From an uncultured Chloroflexia bacterium (GTDB lineage Bacteria; Chloroflexota; Dormibacteria; Aeolococcales; Aeolococcaceae): a DNA stretch of 64,000 bases. Below, in pieces: positions 52,919-53,148 of this stretch. The stretch's first letter is position 1. Each line of letters opens with the position of its first letter. A program made the translations under genes and the position numbers. The notes below the pieces were generated by a model, which was not told the DNA's origin, ran no database searches, and worked only from the letters and a program-made list of their open reading frames with translations. The stretch is from assembly GCA_963697585.1 (NCBI GenBank), contig CAVOOO010000009.1, positions 151,295-215,294 of the forward strand, written 5' to 3'.

Positions 52919-52949
52919 GGGACTCCCGCGGATCTGGCTGGTCGAGATG

Positions 52950-52996
52950 GACGGAGACAAACAAAGAGGGCTCCCTCGCTCTGGGGGAGCCCTCTT
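52950..52996 (-). terminator. intrinsic terminator-like hairpin + U-tract inside the lysine-operon leader (candidate attenuator)
   Basis: On the minus strand: AAGAGGGCTCCCcc-agagc-gaGGGAGCCCTCTT followed by TGTTTGTCTCC. It lies ~32 nt upstream of the hicdh ATG and downstream of the promoter at 53119-53148. Confidence 0.6.
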
Positions 52997-53031
52997 CCGC
53001 TGGCGGCGGGAGCGCCTTGCGGCGCGCGCCT

Positions 53032-53109
53032 CTACTTCGTTCCGGCGGCTCTGGCCCCTGCGAGGGCGTTGCGTCCGGCGAGCGCTTTCGAGGCGAGCGC
53101 GATGTGCAT
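53032..53109 (-). other. 25-codon mini-ORF at the 5' end of the lysine-operon leader (MHIALASKALAGRNALAGARAAGTK*)
   Basis: ATG 53109-53107 lies only ~3 nt after the predicted transcription start. Two Lys codons, one immediately before the stop. Coding status unproven. Confidence 0.25.
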
Positions 53110-53118
53110 CGTCGGCGA

Positions 53119-53148
53119 ACTATACGGGCTGATCGGTTGCGGCGTCAA
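53119..53148 (-). promoter_or_regulatory. sigma70-type promoter of the lysine (AAA) operon: TTGACG-N18-TATAGT
   Basis: On the minus strand: ggTTGACGccgcaaccgatcagcccgTATAGTtcg. Near-consensus hexamers in an otherwise very GC-rich spacer. Confidence 0.55.

Follow-up and report, generated by a model that had tools for sequence, protein, structure and literature searches.

The DNA ahead of hicdh, the first gene of a lysine operon in an uncultured bacterium of the Dormibacteria, raises the question of what a terminator-like hairpin does between a promoter and the gene that follows it. Dormibacteria are abundant uncultured bacteria of peat and soil, and to our knowledge nothing is known about gene regulation in this group. 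A sequence-only reading of the window (the whole stretch of 64,000 nucleotides that was analysed) had described a promoter TTGACG-N18-TATAGT, a near-leaderless ORF of 25 codons and a 13-bp hairpin, all on the minus strand, as the leader of a lysine operon, and had called its mechanism unclear. The three elements lie where that reading placed them, in the following layout.

53148-53143, minus strand: -35 box TTGACG; TTGACGC is identical in 14 of 14 genus-level copies and in other genera
53124-53119, minus strand: -10 box TATAGT, 18 nt from the -35 box in every copy; TATGCT, TATGAT or TACGAT in relatives
53112, minus strand: predicted transcription start (A), 7 nt past the -10 box, placed by promoter geometry
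53109 (ATG) to 53034-53032 (TAG), minus strand: leader ORF of 25 codons plus UAG, product MHIALASKALAGRNALAGARAAGTK
53012-53006, minus strand: CUCCCGC, complementary to the hicdh Shine-Dalgarno (SD) region GCGGGAG, from fold prediction
52997-52954, minus strand: intrinsic-terminator-like hairpin (52997-52963) with U-rich tail, from folding and tail conservation
52927-52923, minus strand: SD of hicdh, GGGAG, from sequence and the alignment of relatives
52918-51812, minus strand: hicdh, LeuB/HICDH family by family scoring, first gene of the alpha-aminoadipate lysine operon

The operon behind the leader is an alpha-aminoadipate lysine operon. Its genes encode an HICDH/LeuB-like protein, homocitrate synthase (above the equivalog cut-off), HacA, HacB and LysX, and a separate LeuB paralogue (56% identity) is located elsewhere in the genome. 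The leader occupies a 253-nt gap on the minus strand between the stop of a 564-residue gene at 53171 and the hicdh ATG at 52918. This upstream ORF (53171-54865, minus strand) has no NCBIfam match; its CWAVG-type C-terminal repeats occur upstream of the leader in some relatives and are absent in others. The hairpin was considered as the terminator of the upstream CWAVG gene and rejected in that role, because the promoter sits between the two and the unit stays in front of lysine genes although the sequence beyond the -35 box differs among genomes and represents several unrelated contexts.

A promoter scan of both strands found TTGACG-N18-TATAGT as the sole sigma-70-like site in 52000-54500 (50 shuffles gave 0.0). 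With a start 7 nt past the -10 box, the 5' UTR of the leader ORF would be about 3 nt (ACG). The distance from the -10 box to the ATG or GTG is 9 nt in four of five genera and 10 nt in the copy from genus g10. The hairpin has a stem of 13 pairs, one of them a closing G-U, around a 9-nt loop, and is followed by the tail UGUUUGUCU; its predicted energy of -25.7 kcal/mol (z -3.69) was equalled by 1 of 200 shuffles. It does not appear in the list of a pattern scanner, probably because its 9-nt loop exceeds the 8-nt limit of that scanner. The hairpin begins 34 nt after the ORF stop, and the SD and ATG of hicdh lie about 35 nt beyond the stem.

The arrangement recurs in related genomes. A covariance model built from 14 copies of the leader gave one match per genome in 12 of the 15 genomes of the window's genus and in all genomes of two sister genera (2 of 2 and 4 of 4; 112-190 bits), and the window's own genome holds a single copy by the same model. 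Completeness is 68-73% in the three genomes of the genus that gave no match, and one of them shows a stretch of N at the locus. Weaker copies in two more genera (36 and 31 bits) directly precede an HICDH-family gene or homocitrate synthase. The leader is also present on 28 metagenome contigs, always before lysine genes, and the distinct sequences total 35. An exact-word scan of species genomes places it in metagenome-assembled genomes labelled Candidatus Dormibacterota or Dormibacteria from bogs and fens, and the sample taken at phylum level behaves as Chloroflexota. At orthologous hicdh loci of the same genus, mean column identity of the leader is 95% and the HICDH protein is 82-90% identical. 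Two genomes of genus g10, G024 and G053 (the latter an unpublished genome), have no such leader ahead of their HICDH-like gene; in G024 (contig C70:106612-107337, L155) the HICDH-like gene, which stands beside homocitrate synthase, is itself interrupted by an in-frame TGA. The promoter-ORF-hairpin unit is a genuine conserved lysine-operon leader, beyond chance. The leader function proposed from the sequence is thereby well supported, since promoter, ORF and hairpin accompany lysine genes and the unit is kept across genera.

The leader ORF looks to be translated, judging from its fixed start, its invariant stop, the indels that keep frame and the AAA triplets that lie in frame. One sister genus uses GTG as the start codon, and the window's genus and three others use ATG; the UAG stop is identical in 33 distinct copies from the three closest genera. 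Just two independent indels fall inside the ORF (one in L046 and L047, one in L112); both are of 3 nt and keep the frame. AAA triplets occur at five distinct sites and all are in frame, barring overlap within one AAAA run. This codon is rare: across 30 ORFs of the window, 1.1% of codons specify Lys, and 4 of these 135 Lys codons (3%) are AAA. The genome carries one tRNA-Lys gene with UUU and one with CUU, so AAA decoding relies on a single tRNA. There are also features that do not bear the mark of coding. Substitutions show no excess at third positions in our own count on the genus-level alignment and are spread evenly over codon positions, and the leader is 73% G+C with all three frames nearly stop-free. 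The peptide is poorly conserved beyond K-x-L-A-G-R-K. The pattern suggests that the peptide sequence as such is unimportant, and that the frame and certain codons are what is kept. The codons concerned are as follows.

53088-53086, minus strand: Lys8, AAA, codon 8 of the leader ORF
53070-53068, minus strand: Asn14, AAC, codon 14; Lys AAA in almost all relatives
53037-53035, minus strand: Lys25, AAG, last sense codon of the leader ORF

Just two Lys codons had been claimed for this ORF, and codons 8 (AAA) and 25 (AAG) are indeed the two. Lys thus takes 2 of 25 codons in the window and 2-4 of 24-25 in relatives, against a background of 1.1%, and is never in tandem. The consensus peptide of the relatives, MQIAHASKQLAGRKALAGAKSAGTK, has Lys at 8, 14, 20 and 25; codons 8 and 14 are Lys in most copies, and in many so are codons 20 and 25. 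Lys8 is the only invariant Lys. Lys14 is AAA in all copies but the window's (AAC, Asn) and L043 (CAA, Gln), and codon 20 of the window's copy is Arg.

The fate of the UAG codon can be followed a little further. After it, the frame of the leader ORF (53031-52916, minus strand) stays open up to a UGA that overlaps the hicdh AUG (AUGA). Read-through of UAG was rejected, as the frame relation is 0, 1 or 2 among the ten relatives listed, and we take the open frame to be a coincidence. ARAGORN reports a tRNA-Pyl(CUA) at L154:134-208 (G000 contig C9:248433-248507, outside the window). As an amber suppressor it was discarded: the Rfam alignment gives a CUUCUAA loop, which we read as anticodon UCU (Arg), and one base is bulged in the stem below it. 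No further tRNA-Arg(UCU) was found in the genome.

A peptide that is read by the ribosome itself would be another use of the ORF. In a nascent-peptide sensor of the TnaC/SpeFL kind, the block K-x-L-A-G-R-K-A-L-A-G-A would arrest the ribosome on free lysine. In its favour, three genera keep the central block, and UAG does not vary. The same block, however, is equally conserved as strands of RNA helices and is not retained in L050 or L051, and an arrest at the stop codon would fall short of the terminator some 35 nt downstream. We regard this explanation as extremely improbable.

Homologous positions in other Chloroflexota are informative. A comparison set of 28 homocitrate synthase loci across the phylum revealed Lys-rich leader ORFs such as MPIAISKQVKRVKKPAHRSG or MRNIHASTKQSKRAKKPAARSG at 12 loci, in family f15. 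These leaders contain four Lys codons, most of them AAG and two of them adjacent as KK, together with a UAG stop, a rod fold and a terminator, and the 5' arm of that terminator pairs with the end of the ORF (GGUCUGGU with ACCAGACC, a 2:3 pairing). In genus g80 of this family the -10 box is again 9 nt from the ATG. The T-box core motif GGGUGGUACC is present at nine of the 28 loci (L124, L129, L132-L135 and L137-L139), of which only L137 was scored in Rfam. At L137:2590-2850, in a sister family of the same class, the match to the T-box is full-length and scores 86 bits; a default Rfam search misses it because the gathering score is 93. Its specifier is read as AAA or AAG. Since Lys-rich leaders and T-boxes are both found at homocitrate synthase loci, sensing of tRNA-Lys is the usual control of the alpha-aminoadipate lysine operon in Chloroflexota. 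The Chloroflexota lysine-leader family is uncatalogued, and the f15 type is not in Rfam.

Some of these loci hold features of their own. In L140-L153 a second conserved ORF of about 35 codons, with its own SD, lies between the leader terminator and homocitrate synthase; this second small ORF of f15 contains AYTPR(Y/R)CRPELFGSCQV with two Cys. L130 and L131 have a very short leader of another type upstream of homocitrate synthase: a G6/C6 hairpin and then a U run come no more than about 30 nt behind a consensus promoter, and a Lys-rich ORF is not evident.

The survey bears on another account of the hicdh leader, namely that there is no switch. The locus would then yield a short transcript of its own, for a basic peptide of 25 residues or as an sRNA, or carry a constitutive leaky terminator that sets a basal level. 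The terminator is predicted under all conditions, and the promoter scan found no promoter-like site between the hairpin and hicdh, so that read-through must occur anyway. Poor conservation of the peptide outside its short block sits badly with a functional product, and the strict linkage to lysine genes in five genera and the lysine-sensing devices at equivalent positions elsewhere in the phylum are hard to reconcile with a passive element. An absence of control is in our judgement very unlikely.

Between promoter and terminator the RNA is predicted to fold into a series of helices.

53100-53022, minus strand: rod-like fold around most of the ORF, from folding, with compensatory changes mainly from L050 and L051
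53100-53090 with 53032-53022, minus strand: P1, codons 4-7 paired with 11 nt that start at the last base of the stop codon
53067-53054, minus strand: P3 apical hairpin, from fold prediction
53025-53012, minus strand: P4 hairpin GCGCC-GCAA-GGCGC, which has GCGC in common with the 3' strand of P1
53009-52997, minus strand: P5, a small hairpin that adjoins the terminator, of variable loop length and sequence

The inner helix of the rod is CCGG/CCGG, and the Lys codons are located in internal loops of the predicted fold. Within the genus no compensatory pairs were seen, the sequences being too similar. Inclusion of the distant copies yields 14 pairs with changes on both sides (shuffles gave 1, slid controls 1-5), in an alignment fitted to the model itself and with a signal that comes mostly from L050 and L051. 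These two copies have the terminator stem altered on both sides and retain a GUUUGU-type tail.

A rival proposal is that the leader is a structured regulatory RNA, with the rod and the invariant P4-P5 region as the binding site for lysine, a pathway intermediate or a protein, and with the ORF as a relic of an ancestral leader peptide or an aid to RNA unfolding. About 70 nt after the ORF stop are nearly invariant in the genus-level alignment, whereas HICDH itself is only 82-90% identical. The P4 loop is mostly of GNRA form (GCAA, GCGA or GUGA in most relatives; GCAC, GCCA or ACAC in a few), and three genera have an unchanged GAGCGA in the terminator loop. Two genomes do without Lys14, and an antiterminator controlled by the ribosome was not found. 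Several observations weigh against this proposal: (i) Rfam gave no matching family, whether the whole window was searched at gathering scores or the leader at E 10; (ii) loops and junctions vary among the copies while helix strands are invariant, the opposite of most aptamers; (iii) no ligand-controlled alternative to the terminator is visible; (iv) start, stop, frame and in-frame AAA are left unexplained; (v) classical leader peptides occupy homologous positions in other Chloroflexota. The pattern of variation suits strands that have several alternative partners better than a ligand pocket. On balance we consider a ligand- or protein-binding RNA of this kind unlikely.

How a ribosome on the ORF might reach the terminator was examined by masking 30 nt around each codon in turn and computing the probability of the terminator. 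None of the nine Dormibacteria leaders showed a ribosome-dependent antiterminator; the terminator probability was 1.0 for all ribosome positions. The same mask removed the terminator in three of five classical f15 leaders, with stalls on or near Lys codons, and given this rate in classical leaders the sensitivity of the test is limited. Complementarity between the 3' half of the rod and the 5' arm of the terminator is not above that of shuffles (z -1.7 to +0.2). When the transcript is made to end ahead of the 3' arm, eight of nine leaders show a gain of 0.1-0.3 in 5'-arm pairing with the ribosome stalled at codons 6-13. This small computed gain is suggestive at best of antitermination.

The complementarity between CUCCCGC and the SD region offers a different route, a translational attenuator of the mycobacterial leaderless type. 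Occupancy of the ORF would gate the pairing of CUCCCGC with the SD, and the hairpin would act as a clamp or partial terminator. In the minimum-energy fold of the whole leader, 53016-53006 is indeed paired to the SD region; the helices of P1, P4 and the anti-SD overlap in a chain; and leaderless polycysteine ORFs provide a precedent (bioRxiv 10.1101/834739). Against it, accessibility of the SD hardly follows the position of the ribosome (0.18-0.32 in the window, flat in the other leaders), L049 has lost the pairing and L050 and L051 lack it, and the conserved U-rich tail would be needless for a clamp. This form of control seems to us decidedly unlikely.

We propose, with about even confidence, that the leader is a ribosome-mediated attenuator that senses charged tRNA-Lys and is a derived member of the Chloroflexota lysine-leader family. 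Transcription would start about 3 nt before the AUG, giving a near-leaderless message from which the mini-ORF would be translated. With ample lysine, or with no ribosome loaded, the RNA of the ORF would form the P1-P3 rod and the hairpin 52997-52963 would form, and most transcripts would stop at the U-rich tail. When Lys-tRNA is scarce, the ribosome would stall at Lys codon 8 (and at 14 and 20 in relatives), at AAA codons that only the single tRNA-Lys(UUU) can read. The stalled ribosome would cover the 5' strand of the rod, and the released G-rich 3' strand would disturb folding of the terminator, allowing RNA polymerase to enter hicdh. Anatomy, conservation, maintenance of frame, placement of codons and the link to lysine genes are observed; we infer translation, stalling, termination and above all antitermination, for which no convincing helix was found.

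This attenuator reading is the best available because tRNA-Lys sensing extends across the phylum, the ORF resembles known Lys leaders, its frame is kept and rare AAA codons are placed within it. The suggestion of a leader peptide made from the sequence alone therefore gains from the extra Lys codons of relatives and the classical Lys leaders elsewhere in Chloroflexota; it lacks the antiterminator that it would need. The doubt then expressed about mechanism stands, as neither an antiterminator nor a ribosome-dependent change in SD access was found. A riboswitch-like or protein-bound RNA retains some probability because of the missing antiterminator, the few and variable Lys codons and the extreme conservation of non-coding sequence. 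One form that this could take is a relic ORF, with one invariant rare AAA inside a nearly invariant RNA, that goes beyond classical attenuation; such an RNA would work without an antiterminator helix or be read by a ligand or protein. We think this improbable. If true, it would amount to a hybrid or new class of lysine-responsive RNA.

The kind of device is well known and the surprise is moderate. The leader is a compact, strongly conserved handle on whether Dormibacteria use leaderless translation. It bears on whether one rare codon suffices as an amino-acid sensor, and on how termination could be overcome when no competing helix is apparent.

Among known systems, the alpha-aminoadipate lysine cluster of Thermus thermophilus is reportedly controlled by a leader-peptide attenuator, said to have been described by Tsubouchi et al. 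in J Biol Chem in 2005. That leader is said to encode a 14-residue peptide with tandem Lys codons and to have a defined terminator/antiterminator pair. In both systems a short ORF that contains Lys codons, followed by a terminator, separates the promoter from the leading gene of an alpha-aminoadipate operon. Compared with the Thermus leader as it is described, the ORF of the window is longer (25 codons) and near-leaderless, and has two (window) to four spaced Lys codons, mostly the rare AAA.

The lysine riboswitch (L-box, RF00168) is likewise a lysine-operon leader that ends in a terminator, and UAGAGGCGC in the window's leader resembles the start of the L-box core. This identity was rejected: there is no RF00168 match even at E 10, and the RNA past UAGAGGCGC is too short for five helices. 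The Lys T-box (RF00230) serves the same operon in the sister family and in other Chloroflexota, and senses tRNA-Lys. No RF00230 match was obtained up to E 10 and UGG is absent from 53112-52998; with no UGG before the hairpin, the leader lacks the bulge that binds the tRNA acceptor end, and T-box identity was also rejected.

Mycobacterial leaderless polycysteine ORFs control downstream translation by sequestration of the SD (bioRxiv 10.1101/834739). They resemble the present case in that a leaderless sensory mini-ORF, whose RNA forms a very stable duplex with its 3' UTR, precedes a biosynthetic operon in a high-GC bacterium (bioRxiv 10.1101/834739). In the mycobacterial type the codon tract itself pairs with the SD and there is no terminator, whereas the present leader has a conserved terminator, and its anti-SD is found beyond the ORF, 20 nt past the stop codon and not in the sensory codons.

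The f15 Lys leaders share with the window's leader the genomic position, the UAG stop, a long-range helix that encloses the ORF and a terminator with a U-rich tail. Both also have S/T-K-Q near codons 7-9, an apical hairpin in the same position and, ahead of it, a Lys-Pro/Ala step, with the last regulatory Lys immediately in front of the hairpin; this is a likeness in sequences too short for a significance test and beyond the reach of covariance model R1, which does not extend to f15. The f15 leaders possess a KK pair and a clear 2:3 pairing, whereas the window's leader family has neither. Judged on these sequence features, the ORF of the window looks like a reduced version of the f15 leader design. 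One operon in one phylum would then be served by three related devices, a T-box, a classical Lys leader peptide and a reduced form, a series that would be useful for studying how attenuators change over time.
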